Below are positions 1-9,207 of a stretch of 26,205 nucleotides of DNA, one piece after another. The translations under genes were made by a program, and so were the position numbers. The notes below the pieces were generated by a model. The model was not told the origin of the DNA. It did not search any database and was given only the letters and a program-made list of their open reading frames with translations. This DNA is from a virus. Lineage: Duplodnaviria > Caudoviricetes. The stretch's first letter is position 1, and each line of letters begins with the position of its first letter. Location of the stretch: the IMG/VR virus record IMGVR_UViG_3300032290_000052, positions 1 to 26,205 of that record; one strand, given 5' to 3'.

Positions 1-64
1 ATACTGGGGTTTTTGCTTTATGCACGTCAGACAGTCATCAAATATCACAAGTCACAAATTACTT

Positions 65-80
65 TATACAGTACTGTATA
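65..80. promoter_or_regulatory. Perfect 16-bp palindrome TATACAGTACTGTATA (operator-like; LexA-like half-sites)
   Basis: Self-complementary at 65-80; overlaps CTGTATATCCGTACAT (74-89), one mismatch from the CTG-N10-CAG SOS box. Confidence 0.45.
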
Positions 81-157
81 TCCGTACATGTATATGTACA
101 GGCCACGCTAGAAAGTACTGTACAAAAGGGGTCGAGCGATTCAAAATCGACTGTCCG

Positions 158-177
158 ATGACGTGCATGACGTGCAT
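158..177 (+). repeat. Short tandem repeat ATGACGTGC x2 + AT
   Basis: Direct repeats at 158-166 and 167-175, just upstream of ATG 184. Confidence 0.6.
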
Positions 178-183
178 ACAATT

Positions 184-399
184 ATGGCAACAAATAAAGC
201 AGGTAGACCCGCTTCAATTCGTACGCGCAATTTTAAGCGCCGATTGTCAGATAGCGACGCGCAGATTTTGGCGGCCGCCGGCGCCGGTGATGTATCCGCC
301 GGTTTTCGTAATTTGATCGCCTTGTATCAAGAACTGTACGCAATGGGATACAAAAGTATCGATGAAGTCCTTATAGCTTTTGATAATCGTCCAAAATAG
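184..399 (+). CDS. Small putative DNA-binding protein (71 aa; AGRP motif then ribbon-helix-helix-like pattern)
   Basis: In-frame ATG at 184 within ORF 163..399; MATNKAGRPASIRTRNFKRRLSDSDAQILAAAGAGDVSAGFRNLI: basic GRP motif, a strand-like segment, then two helices. Confidence 0.5.
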   Translation: MATNKAGRPASIRTRNFKRRLSDSDAQILAAAGAGDVSAGFRNLIALYQELYAMGYKSIDEVLIAFDNRPK

Positions 400-436
400 T
401 TGATAGGTTTTGACTATTAAATAAAGTGTTGCGGAT

Positions 437-470
437 TGTGTCTTAAAGCGCCCGCACCAAGACACATTTT
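437..470 (+). terminator. Possible intrinsic terminator hairpin
   Basis: TGTGTCTT (437-444) / AAGACACA (459-466) inverted repeat followed by TTTT; the 14-nt loop is long. Confidence 0.3.
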
Positions 471-493
471 ACATAACGCATTTTATTTTCGTG
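466..493 (-). other. dif-like XerCD site 1 (CACGAAAATAA-AATGCG-TTATGTAAAAT on the - strand)
   Basis: 11-6-11 architecture; XerD arm TTATGTAAAAT is 10/11 identical to E. coli TTATGTTAAAT; the XerC-side arm ends in ATAA. Confidence 0.55.
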
Positions 494-542
494 CCAGCAA
501 ATTAATTAGGGTCAGACCCCTCGACTTTTCCGGCGCAATAGG

Positions 543-565
543 CCCTCCCTATTACCCTCCCTCCC
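543..565 (-). other. Canonical G-quadruplex motif GGG-A-GGG-A-GGG-TAATA-GGG-A-GGG
   Basis: The + strand reads CCCTCCCTATTACCCTCCCTCCC, giving five G3 tracts with short loops on the - strand. Confidence 0.6.
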
Positions 566-575
566 TCGCCGCCAT

Positions 576-603
576 AATGCATATAACCTGCATTATGTAA
601 AAC
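576..603 (+). other. dif-like XerCD site 2 (AATGCATATAA-CCTGCA-TTATGTAAAAC)
   Basis: 11-6-11 architecture with the ATAA-N6-TTATG core of proteobacterial dif sites; inverted relative to site 1. Confidence 0.6.
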
Positions 604-629
604 GCGCTGCATAGTTTTTGCCTATTAGA

Positions 630-665
630 GTGAGTGCTTGCTAACGTAAGTTAGTGCTTACTAAC
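630..665. promoter_or_regulatory. Two tandem quasi-palindromes (GTGAGTGCTTGCTAAC, GTTAGTGCTTACTAAC), SlmA-binding-site-like
   Basis: 16-bp units at 630-645 and 650-665 with a 20-bp period; 12-bp cores GTGAGTGCTTGC and GTTAGTGCTTAC resemble the SlmA consensus GTgAGtaCTcAC. Confidence 0.5.
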
Positions 666-668
666 ATA

Positions 669-681
669 GGGGGGAGGGGGG
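669..681 (+). other. G-run GGGGGGAGGGGGG containing the KOPS octamer GGGGAGGG (671-678)
   Basis: Exact GGGNAGGG match. G-runs just upstream of terS could also mark a packaging/terminus region. Confidence 0.4.
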
Positions 682-720
682 TATGGCTGTCTTATAATAT
701 TTGCGGGTGCCTCCAACCCA

Positions 721-783
721 CAAAAAAAGCAAAAAAAGGCAAAATAGCAAAATAGCCTTTCTGGCAAACCAAATTAGCAAAAA
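721..783 (+). repeat. Roughly phased A-tracts and GCAAAATA repeats (intrinsically bent DNA)
   Basis: A-tracts start at 722, 731, 741 and 749 (8-10 bp spacing), with more at 766-783; upstream of TACAAT (790-795) and terS. Confidence 0.5.
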
Positions 784-826
784 GAGCTATACAATCCGAT
801 TGCTTCCAATTAAAAGGAAAAAAGCG

Positions 827-1165
827 ATGCCAGCACCAATTAAAGACCCGCCCTACGTTTTTCCGACGACGCTTGCGAAGACGGATACCCAGCGCATCAA
901 AGAACTAAAGCGCATGTTGATCGAGGGCCAAGGCGAGCATGTTGTCCAAAAGGTGTTGGACATTGCTTTGGAAGACGGACACCCAGGGCAAATGGCTGCG
1001 CTAAAGATGTGCATGGATCGTGCGCTACCGGCCAGCCTGTTCGAGAAGACTGCCGCACAACGCAGCGCCATTAACATCACCATATCGACGCTAGGCGCCC
1101 CGCAAGTAATCGAATCATCGCCAACCAACGACGACATAACGGACGTAGAGGCCAAAGATGGATGA
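827..1165 (+). CDS. terS: Putative terminase small subunit (112 aa)
   Basis: ATG 827 preceded by AAGGA; helical protein with ALEDG..QMAALKMCMDRALP and an acidic tail ITDVEAKD; lies upstream of terL. The TTG 701 extension runs through A-tracts and is unlikely. Confidence 0.65.
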   Translation: MPAPIKDPPYVFPTTLAKTDTQRIKELKRMLIEGQGEHVVQKVLDIALEDGHPGQMAALKMCMDRALPASLFEKTAAQRSAINITISTLGAPQVIESSPTNDDITDVEAKDG

Positions 1166-1559
1166 CTATCTAAATAGCTTAGGACTATCGCCGCAGGAAC
1201 TAAACAAGGTTATGTACCACCGGTCTAACATGGCCAAGCCTGGGGTTGACCCCGAAGGCAATCCAATCACCATCTACGCCACCGGCATTCAGATACCGTC
1301 TGGCAAGTACAAAGGCCAGTTCGTATCAATACCTGGGTATGTCGGCGGTAAGGTGATTGAAGACGAAAGCACGTTATGGAAAACGTGGAAGCGCGATATT
1401 GAAGCCGGTAAGTGGCCGATCTATCCAACCAGCAAAGCCTTGAACGAGCGCGACGCATGGCTGCATCAAATAATGGAGCGCGACATGGCGCTTGAGCGAG
1501 CCAAGCAAACGCCAGCCGAACCGGTGTTTTACAAAGACCCCTTCGGAGCGCCTGACTAA
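1158..1559 (+). CDS. Hypothetical protein between terS and terL (133 aa)
   Basis: GAGG upstream; overlaps both neighbours (coupled); no recognisable family; C-terminus VFYKDPFGAPD. Confidence 0.8.
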   Translation: MDDYLNSLGLSPQELNKVMYHRSNMAKPGVDPEGNPITIYATGIQIPSGKYKGQFVSIPGYVGGKVIEDESTLWKTWKRDIEAGKWPIYPTSKALNERDAWLHQIMERDMALERAKQTPAEPVFYKDPFGAPD

Positions 1560-2818
1560 TGTCTGACGTACATTTTCAGTTCCTGCCGTGGCAAGAGCAA
1601 GTGTTTGCTGATTCCACACGTTTTAAAGTGATCGCCGCTGGCCGACGCTGTGGCAAGTCTAGGTTAGCGGCCACTACGCTGCTGCTAGAAGGTCTGAAAT
1701 GTCCTGCCGGATCGGCTGTCTTGTATGTGGCGCCCACCAACGGCCAAGCCCGCCAGATTATCTGGAACGTACTAATGGAGCTGGGACGGGATGTAATCGC
1801 CAACAGTCACATCAACAATCAAGACATCACCCTAATCAACGGCGCAACTATCTATGTCAGAGGCGCCGATCGGCCAGACACCCTGCGCGGTGTGTCCTTG
1901 ACCTACGCCGTGCTGGACGAGGTGGCCGACATTAAGCCGGAAACGTGGGAACAGGTAATACGCGCGGCGCTCTCAGACAAGAAGGGTCGCGGGATGTTCA
2001 TCGGAACACCCAAAGGGCGCAACTGGTTCTATGATCTATTTCAGTTGGGCGAAGACGGCACTGACAAAGATTGGAAGAGCTGGCACTTCACCACCAAAGA
2101 CAACCCGCTAATTGATCCAGAAGAAATCGAGTCGGCCAAGAAGACGCTATCCACCTTTGCGTTTAAGCAGGAATACATGGCCAGTTTCAGTAATGCTGGC
2201 TCGGACATCTTTAAGGAAGAGTGGATCAAGTACGGTGAAGAGCCGACGCAAGGTAGTTACTTTGTGGCGGTGGACTTGGCCGGATTTGAAGAAGTGGCAC
2301 GACAAGCGGCCAACTCTAAGAAGCGGCTGGACGAGTCAGCCATTGCAGTAGTCAAAGTGACTGACGAGGGCAAATGGTGGATCAAGAAGATAGAACATGG
2401 CCGGTGGGATATTCGGGAGACGGCGGCCAAGATACTGATGGCCATGCGGGATTACCGACCGCTGTCGATTGGAATTGAGCGAGGCGCATTAAAAAACGCT
2501 GTTTTGCCGTATTTGAGTGACTTAATGCGTAAGAATAATGTATATTCGCACATAGTTGACCTAACGCACGGCAACCGGAAAAAGGCTGACCGGATTATCT
2601 GGAGCCTCCAAGGGCGTTTTGAGCATGGCAGGATTGTGCTTAATTCAGACGAGGATTGGGATATATTCCTAGATCAGCTTCTTATGTTCCCTGCACAGGG
2701 GGTACACGACGATTTGCCTGACGCCTTGTCCTATATAGACCAATTGGCCGTGACATCCTACATGCAAGAGGATGAATCCGACGATTGGGAACCGGTGGAC
2801 ATTATTTCGGGTGTATAA
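1559..2818 (+). CDS. terL: Terminase large subunit
   Basis: Adenine-binding motif FLPWQ, Walker A AGRRCGKS, Walker B AVLDE, coupling motif GTPKG, RNase H-like nuclease VAVDLA ... HDDLPDA. Confidence 0.97.
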   Translation: MSDVHFQFLPWQEQVFADSTRFKVIAAGRRCGKSRLAATTLLLEGLKCPAGSAVLYVAPTNGQARQIIWNVLMELGRDVIANSHINNQDITLINGATIYVRGADRPDTLRGVSLTYAVLDEVADIKPETWEQVIRAALSDKKGRGMFIGTPKGRNWFYDLFQLGEDGTDKDWKSWHFTTKDNPLIDPEEIESAKKTLSTFAFKQEYMASFSNAGSDIFKEEWIKYGEEPTQGSYFVAVDLAGFEEVARQAANSKKRLDESAIAVVKVTDEGKWWIKKIEHGRWDIRETAAKILMAMRDYRPLSIGIERGALKNAVLPYLSDLMRKNNVYSHIVDLTHGNRKKADRIIWSLQGRFEHGRIVLNSDEDWDIFLDQLLMFPAQGVHDDLPDALSYIDQLAVTSYMQEDESDDWEPVDIISGV

Positions 2819-8448: not shown

Positions 8449-9207
8449 ATGTTGATTGACAAAGAATCTGAGTTGCCTAGTGAGTTAGAGACAGAGGAAG
8501 CCAAGCTAGAATCTACGATTGGCCATGACAAACCAGACCTTCCTGAAAGGTATCGGAATAAGTCTCTCGAAGACGTTATGAAGATGCACCAAGAAGCGGA
8601 AAAAGTCATTGGACGCCAAGCGCAAGAAGTCGGCGAAGTGCGGAAACTGGCAGATGAACTGATTAAGCAAAACCTTAGTTCTAGGCAGCAACCTATTGCA
8701 GAGGCAGAGCAGGAAGTAGACTTTTACGAAGACCCACAAAAGGCAGTTCGTAATACGATTGATAGACACCCTGACATCATTGAGGCTCGAAAAGCCGCAT
8801 CGGAGTTAAGGGCGTTACAGACTCAACAGAAGCTGACTCAAGCACATCCTGATTTTGAACAAGTTGTTCGAGATGATGGGTTTGTGAATTGGGTTAAGTC
8901 GTCACCGATTCGTTTGGATTTATTCAAGCGAGCTGATGCAGAGTTTGATTTTGATTCGGCTAACGAATTGCTGTCCACCTACAAAGAGTTGCGTGGAATT
9001 CAGACTAAGCAAGCGAACCAACAAGCATCAACGGATCGCCAAAAAACGATGAAATCCGTGCAGGTTGATAGCGGTGGAAGCGGTGAGAGTTCAAAAAGAG
9101 TTTACCGACGTGCTGACCTAATTCGGCTAAAAATGAATGACCCAGCCCGATATGACGCACTATCTGATGAGATTATGTCGGCGTATCAAGAGGGACGGGT
9201 CAAGTAA
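8449..9207 (+). CDS. Capsid scaffolding protein
   Basis: Acidic and helical; PERYRNKS.EDV.KMHQEAEK.IGRQ..EVGE.R; C-terminal DP.RY..LSDEI..AY.EGRVK; immediately upstream of the capsid gene. Confidence 0.85.
   Translation: MLIDKESELPSELETEEAKLESTIGHDKPDLPERYRNKSLEDVMKMHQEAEKVIGRQAQEVGEVRKLADELIKQNLSSRQQPIAEAEQEVDFYEDPQKAVRNTIDRHPDIIEARKAASELRALQTQQKLTQAHPDFEQVVRDDGFVNWVKSSPIRLDLFKRADAEFDFDSANELLSTYKELRGIQTKQANQQASTDRQKTMKSVQVDSGGSGESSKRVYRRADLIRLKMNDPARYDALSDEIMSAYQEGRVK

Follow-up and report, generated by a model that had tools for sequence, protein, structure and literature searches.

A dif-like site and an exchangeable operator slot as a candidate landing pad for host DNA-binding proteins in a family of freshwater tailed phages

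Introduction

The use of the host recombinases XerC and XerD is known from plasmids, filamentous phages and double-jelly-roll phages. In the plasmid sites cer (ColE1) and psi (pSC101), a dif-like core with a central region unlike that of chromosomal dif, flanked by accessory sequences to which other proteins bind, is served by host XerCD, the replicon having no recombinase of its own. Other host proteins act as repressors: phages such as GIL01 and CTX reportedly have their lytic genes held off by host LexA. In dif-type double-jelly-roll and Xer-integrating elements the gene xafT adjoins attP (Ma & Zhang 2025). The 12-bp palindrome of SlmA is given by Tonthat et al. (2011) as GTRAGYRCTYAC, with G1, T2, A4, G5, a purine at 3 and a pyrimidine at 6, and 52 SlmA ChIP sites are reported there for E. 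coli. A full-text literature search found, in the portions of the sources accessible, no description of a tailed phage using host XerCD, and it found none of a control region that exchanges its operator array among DnaA, LexA and SlmA-type sites.

Here we analyse an uncultured phage represented by a stretch of 26,205 nucleotides (the window), with particular attention to the spacer upstream of its late operon. Like cer and psi, this spacer has a dif-like core, with a central region unlike chromosomal dif, on a replicon without its own recombinase. It differs from them in belonging to a tailed-phage genome, in having ATAG-N7-CTAT palindromes on both sides of the site rather than ~180 bp ArgR/PepA or ArcA sites on one side, and in the linkage of a phage gene to the site; recombination here is a proposal made from sequence. 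With the filamentous phages CTX, TLC and VGJ and the dif-type double-jelly-roll vibriophages the locus shares a dif-like site, the lack of an integrase and a small gene beside the site. Those phages are integrated at dif, often in tandem arrays, whereas no integrated copy was found here, and the small gene of our phage, gp71, has no detectable likeness to any Pfam family and lies in a tailed phage. The LexA-controlled phages GIL01 and CTX are similar in having a host repressor site at the phage control region and no phage repressor, but in the present family LexA boxes are one of at least three interchangeable site types and are absent from the window's own region.

Results

The phage, its relatives and the layout of the region

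The family consists of freshwater tailed phages; the phage studied here is podovirus-like and has its own replication genes. Related large terminases (TerL) are present on an estimated ~1,500 viral contigs, from samples mostly labelled lake, river or drinking-water. Cultured relatives are distant: none of 50,697 phage records matched at the DNA level and the best TerL identity to a cultured relative is <60%. The window encodes PolA, a primase, an exonuclease and a helicase, and neither repressor nor partition genes were found in the phage gene content. The features of the region are collected in Table 1. The first late gene had no match in family searches and its assignment as terS follows from position. 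The spacer had been described in an earlier note on this DNA as the only large intergenic region, which is correct for the window; in the complete relative G001 there is another, ~680 nt long, whose end corresponds to window positions 1–183. No Rfam family matched positions 1–1300 at E ≤ 1.

The relatives are non-independent samples, and counts taken from them overstate the number of separate events. Six loci (L085, L119, L153, L174, L181 and L198), which matched the search pattern and on inspection by eye lacked the rest of the core, were dropped; L090 was omitted from core alignment A1 on the unchecked assumption that it belongs with L085 in one unrelated group. The set of 85 relatives still includes four of the dropped loci, all without dif-like matches.

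Table 1 Features of the region upstream of the late genes
Feature	Positions	Strand	Basis
Small gene gp71, 71 aa, matching no known family; co-occurs with the dif-like site	184..399	+	Relatives
ATAG-N7-CTAT palindrome, copy 1	403..417		Palindrome count
dif-like copy 1, lineage-specific, inverted relative to copy 2	466..493	-	Second best window match
ATAG-N7-CTAT palindrome, copy 2, at fixed offset left of the dif-like core	538..552		Relatives
C-rich tract, canonical G4 motif on the minus strand, not conserved	543..570	-	Close relatives
dif-like 28-mer: XerC-arm-like 576-586, central 587-592, XerD-arm-like 593-603	576..603	+	Relatives; dif tables of Carnoy & Roten 2009
ATAG-N7-CTAT palindrome, copy 3, immediately right of the dif-like core	611..625		Palindrome count
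Two tandem 20-bp repeats, each with a SlmA-SBS-like 12-mer (630-641, 650-661); swappable operator slot	629..668	+	Relatives
G6AG6 run, start of the invariant core; contains KOPS-like octamer 671-678	669..681	+	Alignment
Rest of core: TATAAT 693-698, TTTGCGGGTGCCTCC 700-714, CCCAC 717-721, A-run 722-728	682..730	+	Alignment of 114 sequences
Variable A-rich leader up to the first late gene	729..826	+	Relatives, DNA contigs, terS homologs
First late gene, putative small terminase (terS)	827..1165	+	Position only
Large terminase	1559..2818	+	Family searches

All of the motifs listed in the earlier note, namely two dif-like sites, a G4 motif, two SlmA-like boxes, a KOPS octamer and phased A-tracts, are present at the positions assigned to them. 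The strength of the case was said to lie in their co-occurrence; instead, it is conservation in relatives that lifts two of them above chance. A scan of relatives against shuffles, as the note had proposed, showed enrichment of the dif-like site and of SlmA-consensus 12-mers, while the second dif-like copy, the G4 motif and the A-tracts proved not to be conserved.

The dif-like site

The 28-mer at 576–603 (+) reads AATGCATATAA-CCTGCA-TTATGTAAAAC and that at 466–493 (−) reads CACGAAAATAA-AATGCG-TTATGTAAAAT; no other stretch of the window matches the dif of Methylobacillus (Carnoy & Roten 2009) as well. Against this reference, which was picked after the match had been seen, each 28-mer agrees at 13 of the 14 inner arm positions, a score reached in none of 100 shuffles, and when all 22 arm positions are counted the best score, 17, was reached in 7 of 100. 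With the E. coli-like arm of Thiobacillus dif the inner score is 12/14, reached in 27 of 100 shuffles. The evidence from the window alone is marginal. The XerD-like arm, TTATGTAAAAC, matches Methylobacillus dif at 10 of 11 positions, a dif-type arm being expected near TTATGTTAAAT, and AATGCATATAA with its 6-bp central region fits a XerC arm at the 6–8 bp spacing to the XerD arm.

In the relatives, a dif-like 28-mer lies ≤260 nt from the core in 58 of 113, compared with a mean of 1.05 matches in 200 dinucleotide shuffles. Using the pattern AA-N6-TTATGKHA, the site is found ≤400 nt from the core in 40 of 85 distinct relatives, with 8 matches in the 353,405 nt elsewhere in the same loci; the other 45 have no dif-like site by this pattern. 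The complete genomes G001 and G003 have one site each. TTATG and A25 are fixed across the sites and position 24 is variable; in the XerC-like arm the inner CATAA or ATACAA is kept and the outer part varies. The XerD-like arms of relatives include TTATGTAAAAT, TTATGTCAAAT, TTATGTTAAGT and TTATGTTAACT, all four of which are natural dif arms in the tables of Carnoy & Roten (2009), and the conservation pattern of the phage arms follows the natural dif variation recorded there. The XerD arm of Methylobacillus dif, as those tables give it, is identical in 15 of 30 distinct phage sites oriented like that of the window; the commonest arm in the window's clade, TTATGTAAAAT, is that of Methylobacillus flagellatus, and the site of the relative L115, ACTTGATACAA-CGGGCG-TTATGTTAAGT, matches Rhodoferax ferrireducens dif at 21 of 22 arm positions. 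The phage sites are similar to the chromosomal dif of Betaproteobacteria in those tables in arm sequences and in the pattern of conserved positions, and unlike it in being phage-borne and surrounded by phage-specific palindromes. The 95 relatives scanned contain 70 copies of ATAG-N7-CTAT, spread over 34 of them, where shuffles gave 0.7, and its offsets of −47/−38 and +26 from the dif-like core, that is, on both sides, recur in relatives.

The central hexamer in the phage sites is CCWGCA or TGTCCA, compared with TGTATA in the dif of those hosts, a difference easier to reconcile with recombination among phage copies than with recombination at host dif. No PF00589 tyrosine recombinase was detected in any of five complete relatives (the control was detected in 14 of 14 genomes), as would be expected for an element that borrows XerCD. 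We predict that 576–603 is a binding site for host XerC/XerD. Contigs of two loci, L002 and L004, start ≤8 nt from the dif-like site; these are 2 of 49 family loci with near-identical genomes, and the observation was given no weight.

Of the two dif-like sites proposed earlier, then, 576–603 is conserved in relatives and 466–493 is not: a second, inverted copy is confined to the window, L003 and L006 in the set of 85 relatives, and the segment carrying it is missing from L005, L007, L008 and L009. L005 and L006 retain the G4 tract, whereas the other four of the six close relatives, L003, L007, L008 and L009, have lost or altered it. The A-tracts at 720–790 are present yet replaceable, since L005 lacks them, and DNA contigs from runs X2 and X7 have position 728/729 joined to 785. 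Although both elements occur in the window, we do not regard either as part of a conserved cassette.

The small gene gp71

Of 82 relatives, 44 have a gp71 homolog no more than 1 kb upstream of the core, and 40 of these also carry the dif-like site, compared with only 4 of the 38 relatives without a homolog (Fisher p = 3e-14, a statistic that ignores shared ancestry); by eye, the four exceptions, in which no homolog was called, have diverged gp71 copies. The module can thus no longer be described as protein-free, as had been suggested, since the dif mimic travels with a phage gene. The protein has no Pfam or PHROG match. Its predicted structure (pLDDT 86.5) has three helices behind a basic arm, and neither Foldseek against the PDB (no matches at E ≤ 0.001) nor a profile search of PDB sequences returned anything. 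A protein atlas offered MobC_2, RHH_7 and DUF3950, all below 0.9 and to be taken as leads only. We considered whether gp71 variants follow the repeat type at 629–668 and rejected this, there being no tracking. A possible role for gp71 is that of accessory or activating factor for the Xer site.

An exchangeable slot ahead of the core

The two repeats, 629–648 and 649–668, are 85% alike, and their 12-mers match GTNAGNNCTNAC with one and no mismatches, respectively; at ≤1 mismatch there are 11 such matches in the whole window against 6.6 expected. Compared with the SlmA consensus, each 12-mer deviates once, 630–641 at position 2 of the second half and 650–661 by a T at position 3, and one of these deviations falls at a position important for binding according to Tonthat et al. 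(2011).

The 260 nt upstream of the G-run were scanned in 113 relatives and compared with shuffles. Exact DnaA boxes (TTATCCACA) number 123 in 36 relatives, with 1–5 in each (shuffle mean 0.41), LexA boxes 19 in 13 relatives (0.55), and perfect SlmA-consensus 12-mers 23 in 16 relatives, usually two in each (0.05). The three types were never found together in one relative's slot, and the arrays stop 6–20 nt ahead of the G-run. The window's own slot contains neither DnaA nor LexA boxes. The SlmA-like boxes of the earlier note thus occupy a slot that holds perfect SlmA palindromes in some relatives, and the window's own units fit the consensus with one deviation each. The perfect palindromes (16 of 113 relatives) match the 12-bp consensus of E. 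coli; according to Tonthat et al. (2011), the E. coli sites are scattered on the chromosome outside promoter regions, whereas the phage ones are tandem and abut the conserved core.

SlmA itself (NF007015 above cut-off) is encoded by 89 of 121 genomes in the order of G007, which is the candidate host order, or by 88 of 120 if G035, flagged as unpublished, is set aside. Across 41 chromosomes of G007's family, the candidate host family, the E. coli SlmA consensus shows no enrichment (41 matches, 44 in the control). Binding of the 629–668 repeats by the primase-helicase was also considered and rejected, as the C-terminus of that protein fails to separate relatives with the repeats from those without.

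The conserved core

The core occurs once in the window. Its AT-rich, −10-like element is nearly invariant in the alignment of 114 sequences, and 80 of 85 relatives have a terS homolog downstream on the same strand, at 93–1135 nt; L014 has the entire module turned around with respect to terL. A hairpin between GYGGG and CCCAC was rejected: compensatory pairs were absent, and the share of paired cells, 75.7%, did not exceed that of shuffles, of which 331 in 500 were as high. The TATAAT has no −35 partner 16–18 bp away as a sigma-70 promoter would, and the two sites that a promoter scan gave in 1 kb equal the expectation (2.0) and lie outside the core. Assembled contigs from four RNA libraries included none on 1–688 and one covering 689–948, which shows neither a transcript start nor upstream silence. 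Judged from its sequence and position, the core is probably the promoter or leader of the late operon, a reading that leaves the role of the G-run unaccounted for.

An octamer within the G-run, GGGGAGGG, had been read as a KOPS that would recruit FtsK. It is the only match in 26 kb, where 1.5 are expected, and at least one was present in 84 of 100 shuffles; over-representation of GGGNAGGG with a skew toward dif, the mark of KOPS, was not seen (1 against 1.5 expected). The octamer does point away from 576–603, as the earlier note had it, but relatives have the dif-like site in two orientations, and the direction of the octamer relative to the site changes with them. The octamer is simply part of the conserved G-run, and the FtsK element of the earlier idea is not supported.

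Discussion

We interpret the 400–826 spacer as a landing pad, placed ahead of the late operon, for DNA-binding proteins of the host, likely made up of two parts; we rate this as a serious possibility, somewhat short of probable. In the first part, host XerC/XerD would bind the palindrome-flanked dif mimic, which is inherited with gp71, and gp71 may assist or activate them there. The role of the mimic would be multimer resolution on a circular form of the genome, in the manner of cer and psi on plasmids; the gene content, with partition and repressor genes absent, holds no sign of a circular plasmid-like stage. In the second part, the repeats at 629–668 are predicted operators for a repressor-type protein of the host, which could be SlmA or another TetR-like protein. 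They abut the invariant core 669–730, here taken as late operon promoter plus leader, and the host protein would gate it. The sequences themselves show the motifs, their conservation and enrichment, their swapping between relatives and the linkage of gene and site, from which we go on to infer the identity of the bound proteins, the recombination and the promoter role of the core. The phage thus likely borrows host chromosome proteins to resolve and time its own genome. What survives of the originally proposed host-protein-recruiting cis module is its conserved look-alikes of host chromosome-protein sites, without FtsK.

Several other explanations have to be weighed against this. It is doubtful that the spacer is a replication origin joined to a multimer-resolution site, in which the repeats would be initiator sites, the G-run and AT-rich stretch an unwinding or priming element, and the dif mimic a counterpart of cer. 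Up to five exact DnaA boxes are found per 260-nt segment (up to seven within 400 nt at ≤1 mismatch), and in G003 all four perfect boxes of the 35-kb genome lie ≤240 nt from the core. Plasmid origins have a G-rich block beside an AT-rich block, which the core resembles. In the relatives with DnaA boxes the replication module is of another kind, lacking PolA and encoding a primase of a different type. The cumulative GC-skew minimum of G001 is 24 nt from the G-run, but those of G002 and G003 are 3–4 kb off; likewise, the inverted module of L014 suggests that function may not depend on orientation, but the core faces terS in 80 of 85 relatives. Origins do not usually contain LexA boxes or SlmA-type palindromes. 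Moreover, the window's clade has 9-mer iterons, at 19–29 and 158–175, which covary with a C-terminal motif of the primase-helicase (NT pairs with ATGACGTGC in 6 of 6 loci, and HS only with units ending in CCCAC, 6 of 6); since these lie in the other intergenic region, they speak against an origin within 400–826. We think it unlikely that the spacer is a packaging site (cos or pac), with the terminase recognising the core and perhaps cutting in the G-run while neighbouring sites bind DNA-bending proteins. The position right upstream of the first late gene is classic, the orientation is fixed, and the single-copy core is as conserved as TerL (80–99% identical, 80 loci) between flanks that cannot be aligned. 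Four contigs (L038, L041, L103 and G169) start at or ≤7 nt from the G-run, but G-runs also break short-read assemblies and the core is internal in most contigs. DNA contigs cross it (record 4 of run X1 spans 434–1920), no fixed ends were found at the region in the assembled DNA contigs of the runs, complete records close elsewhere, the 123-nt end repeat of G002 being 5.8 kb away, and the DnaA, LexA and SlmA-type arrays would be left unexplained.

Integration at host dif, with the mimic as attachment site for host XerCD as in the CTX-type and double-jelly-roll phages, appears quite unlikely. The two inverted copies ~80 nt apart in the window presumably resemble the arrangement of the CTX phage, but the second copy is not conserved. 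The phage arms closely match host-type dif and no integrase was found in five of five complete relatives, but the central regions depart from the host TGTATA and the gene content is lytic (PolA, primase, exonuclease, helicase), with no repressor. The small gene adjoins the site as xafT adjoins attP in known elements (Ma & Zhang 2025). Among 185,579 species genomes there were six loci, all on short or phage-sized MAG contigs and none with host flanks; two contigs >40 kb are wrap-arounds of two variants rather than prophages, and no copy integrated at host dif with hybrid flanking sites was found. We find it very unlikely that the sites are only a decoy or sink, an idea of the earlier note, by which they would soak up or activate DnaA, LexA, SlmA and XerCD as the genome multiplies and arrest host replication or division, with no regulation of phage genes. 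In its favour, the arrays are interchangeable and their proteins all have a part in the cell cycle of the host, and SlmA is present in the candidate host order. However, they keep a fixed place 6–20 nt from the core, which a decoy does not need, each genome has just 2–5 sites, and the E. coli SlmA consensus is not enriched on the candidate host chromosomes (41 against 44 in the control).

Returning to the landing pad for host proteins, a broader proposal, which we consider speculative and rather improbable, is that this widespread family of freshwater tailed phages hands both recombination and developmental timing to host chromosome-maintenance proteins. XerCD would act by way of a dif mimic with a partner protein, while a plug-in array of DnaA, LexA or SlmA-type sites would keep the late operon silent until the host protein is titrated by replication of the phage genome or removed upon DNA damage, and lineages would swap the array like a cassette. 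If the landing-pad reading holds, gp71 would be a candidate for a new Xer partner protein, and the hosts of uncultured phages could be guessed from sequence alone, because the dif arms track host clades. The family would also provide a testable example of a phage that reads the cell-cycle state of its host through borrowed proteins.

Conserved elements of the late-operon spacer

The spacer at 400–826 combines three elements: a conserved mimic of dif that is tied to a phage gene, a slot filled across relatives by interchangeable arrays of host-type sites, and an invariant core facing the late operon. The earlier note had read it as a candidate cassette of two dif-like sites, a G4, SlmA-like boxes and KOPS that may recruit host XerCD, FtsK and SlmA. 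Every one of its motifs is present where it was placed, but the window alone gives them weak support. Its top two matches to dif are the two dif-like 28-mers, and whether these beat shuffled sequence depends on the reference chosen; the SlmA-like core pattern matches 11 times (≤1 mismatch) against 6.6 expected, and the KOPS octamer once against 1.5 expected.

Features of the window
Feature	Position	Strand	Remark
Inverted copy of the 9-mer	19–29		
Palindrome TATACAGTACTGTATA and overlapping LexA-box-like 16-mer	65–80 and 74–89		palindrome perfect, 16 bp
Tandem 9-mers ATGACGTGC	158–175		two copies, just upstream of gene 184–399
Small phage gene gp71	184–399		71 aa
Second dif-like copy	466–493	−	
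dif-like site	576–603	+	
Tandem 20-bp repeats	629–668		the "SlmA boxes"
Invariant core	669–730		one copy
G-run	669–681		opens the core
First late gene	827–1165	+	unassigned; putative terS by position
133-aa ORF	1158–1559		
Large terminase	1559–2818	+	
Portal, major head protein, tail genes, lysis genes		+	late module
Early genes	far end	−	include a SNF2-type helicase

Relatives were gathered in three ways (by TerL, the core pattern and primase) and the region was then aligned. A block of ~65 nt, corresponding to the core, is common to 114 distinct sequences with unalignable flanks; this and all other counts of relatives refer to related sequences and not to independent events. The consensus runs from TTGAT(A) through G6–9 A G4–6, ~13 nt, TGTAATATTTG, YGGGWRCCTCC and CCCAC to an A-run. 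The A inside the G-run shifts (G6AG6, G7AG5, G8AG4 and G9AG4 in the core alignment, A1) whilst the total run length stays at 13–15, which suggests slippage under a length constraint. Because an apparent hairpin in the core has zero covariation support, the constraint acts on sequence. The core is oriented toward a terS homologue in 80 of 85 relatives, at a distance of 93–1135 nt. The G-run is also where four contigs end. In L014, a relative whose TerL is 91% identical, the module at 1300–1450 is inverted as a whole with respect to terL; it comprises the dif-like site, an SlmA-like repeat, a G10 run and an AT-rich stretch, and is missing the GGGWRCCTCC segment of the core.

A swappable slot upstream of the core

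Directly upstream of the core, the place of the two 20-bp repeats is taken in relatives by other repeated palindromes. We surveyed 113 distinct relatives over the 260 nt preceding the G-run, against 200 dinucleotide shuffles, using DnaA- and LexA-box patterns. Exact DnaA boxes gave 123 hits in 36 relatives (shuffle mean 0.41) and LexA boxes (CTGT-N8-ACAG) 19 hits in 13 (0.55). The SlmA consensus GTRAGYRCTYAC, taken with its position rules from Tonthat et al. 2011, gave 23 hits in 16 (0.05); 28 of the 113, the window among them, match a looser pattern, GTNAGNNCTNAC. The three site types are mutually exclusive; 48 relatives carry none of them, and 23 of those also have no dif-like site. Across the family the slot is thus filled by different arrays that look like sites of host chromosome proteins, the "SlmA boxes" being one such filling. 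In L146, L173, L179 and L073 the slot is occupied, wholly or in part, by a repeated near-palindrome, GGGTAAACCCTA, for which no match to a known protein site was found.

SlmA scores above the curated cut-off in 89 of 121 genomes sampled within the order to which one betaproteobacterial MAG belongs. This MAG contains a phage contig whose TerL is 95% identical, the link between the two being binning alone. The SlmA consensus, which is that of E. coli, gave 41 hits against 44 for a reversed control in 41 genomes of the MAG's family.

The dif mimic and gene 184–399

Throughout the window's clade the plus-strand dif-like site is conserved in a single orientation, separated from the G-run by ~90 nt, or by 130 or 184 nt in members with additional inserted repeats; the 28-mer is flanked by two ATAG-N7-CTAT palindromes at constant offsets. 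In a second clade, that with DnaA boxes, it is reversed and lies 130–160 nt from the G-run. Fixed and variable positions agree with those of real dif sites in the comparison by Carnoy & Roten. The arms correspond to real host types: those in L115 match the dif arms of Rhodoferax ferrireducens at all but 1 of 22 positions, TTATGTAAAAT is the arm of Methylobacillus and TTATGTCAAAT one found in Burkholderia. The central hexamers differ from the hosts' TGTATA. Of 44 relatives with gene 184–399, 40 have the site, against 4 of 38 without the gene; by eye, these last four carry diverged copies of the gene. Site and gene are inherited together. The gene product has no family match. Its model is confident, with a basic arm and three helices, and Foldseek found no fold match in the PDB.

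The cassette is in part real, and more interesting than its motifs taken singly: its dif mimic holds up, as does the operator slot, whereas KOPS does not, and the G4 (C-tract), the A-tracts and the minus-strand dif-like copy drop out, being variable or lost even in relatives ~80–90% identical here.

The phage family and its candidate replication origin

The window is a viral contig of 26,205 bases, classed as linear and 74% complete. Its closest complete relative, G001 (36.6 kb), covers 9 kb missing from it, with a DUF2800 nuclease, a family A DNA polymerase and a 759-residue primase-helicase. A related TerL is encoded on roughly 1,500 viral contigs. Comparison with 50,697 records of cultured phages gave no DNA match and a top TerL identity below 60%. 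Lake, river and drinking water are the labels of the runs with this sequence. The 133-aa ORF that separates the first late gene from terL is an indel: L002, L003, L004, L009 and L010 lack it, and DNA contigs from runs X3 and X7 pass directly from 1157 to 1559. A different ORF replaces it in L011, L013 and L014; by eye, the ORF of the first two shows DPPY, a motif characteristic of DNA methyltransferases.

That 400–826 is the replication origin is a live reading, weakened by the tandem 9-mers in the other intergenic region. Their counterpart in G001 lies at 8740–8990 of L202, and relatives carry ATTGCCCAC, ATGACCCAC, ATTGCCCTC and other units at the equivalent place. The unit covaries, in two separate backgrounds, with a short motif near the primase-helicase C-terminus: GR(I/V)NTRE pairs with ACGTGC (6/6 loci), and HSR(E/D)F is seen solely with units whose last bases are CCCAC (6/6). 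From this pattern, the repeats are likely to be an origin with its initiator code, and the origin of the window's clade more likely lies there than in 400–826. The origin reading of 400–826 is weakened rather than eliminated. The DnaA-box relatives use a different replication module: such relatives, as in G003 (L330 12684–18272), have no PolA, a different primase-helicase (phrog_906/239 type) and a RuvC-like resolvase, with these genes running in the direction of the late operon; the module has therefore been swapped within a family sharing TerL at 80% identity or above. The palindrome TATACAGTACTGTATA, conserved in 7/7 aligned sequences, overlaps a 16-mer that resembles a LexA box at one mismatch, and is probably an early-promoter operator.

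Integration through the 400–826 region is also a live reading. No tyrosine recombinase was found in five complete relatives, and no integrated copy among 185,579 species (one genome each). Two contigs exceed genome length, G168 (47.8 kb) and G169 (41.2 kb; loci L411–L416 for the pair), and are wrap-arounds with no host DNA: the first 8–10 kb recurs at the far end. As these overlaps are only 82–96% identical, each contig is either two variants in tandem or the product of an assembly that spiralled through two strains, which accounts for the two direct dif-like sites, 33.3 kb apart, on G169.

Proposed working

We propose that host XerCD would bind the dif mimic and resolve multimers of a circular phage replicon, perhaps assisted by the small protein of gene 184–399, and that a host repressor-type protein on the repeats would gate the core, the putative promoter and leader of the late operon. 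The mechanism has four main weaknesses: the core has no −35 element and a promoter scan found nothing there, the G-run is left unexplained, the L014 module is inverted, and nothing points directly to a circular plasmid-like stage. A packaging site is a live alternative.

The XerCD and repressor arrangement would be classed with Xer-exploiting elements and with phages under host-repressor control. A further dif-like site, TTTATAGATAA-ACCGCA-TTATGTAAAAT, recurs in L211, L218, L234, L237 and ~30 more loci, on many unrelated viral contigs, mostly large (up to 132 kb). Mimics of dif may be commoner in viral contigs than thought.
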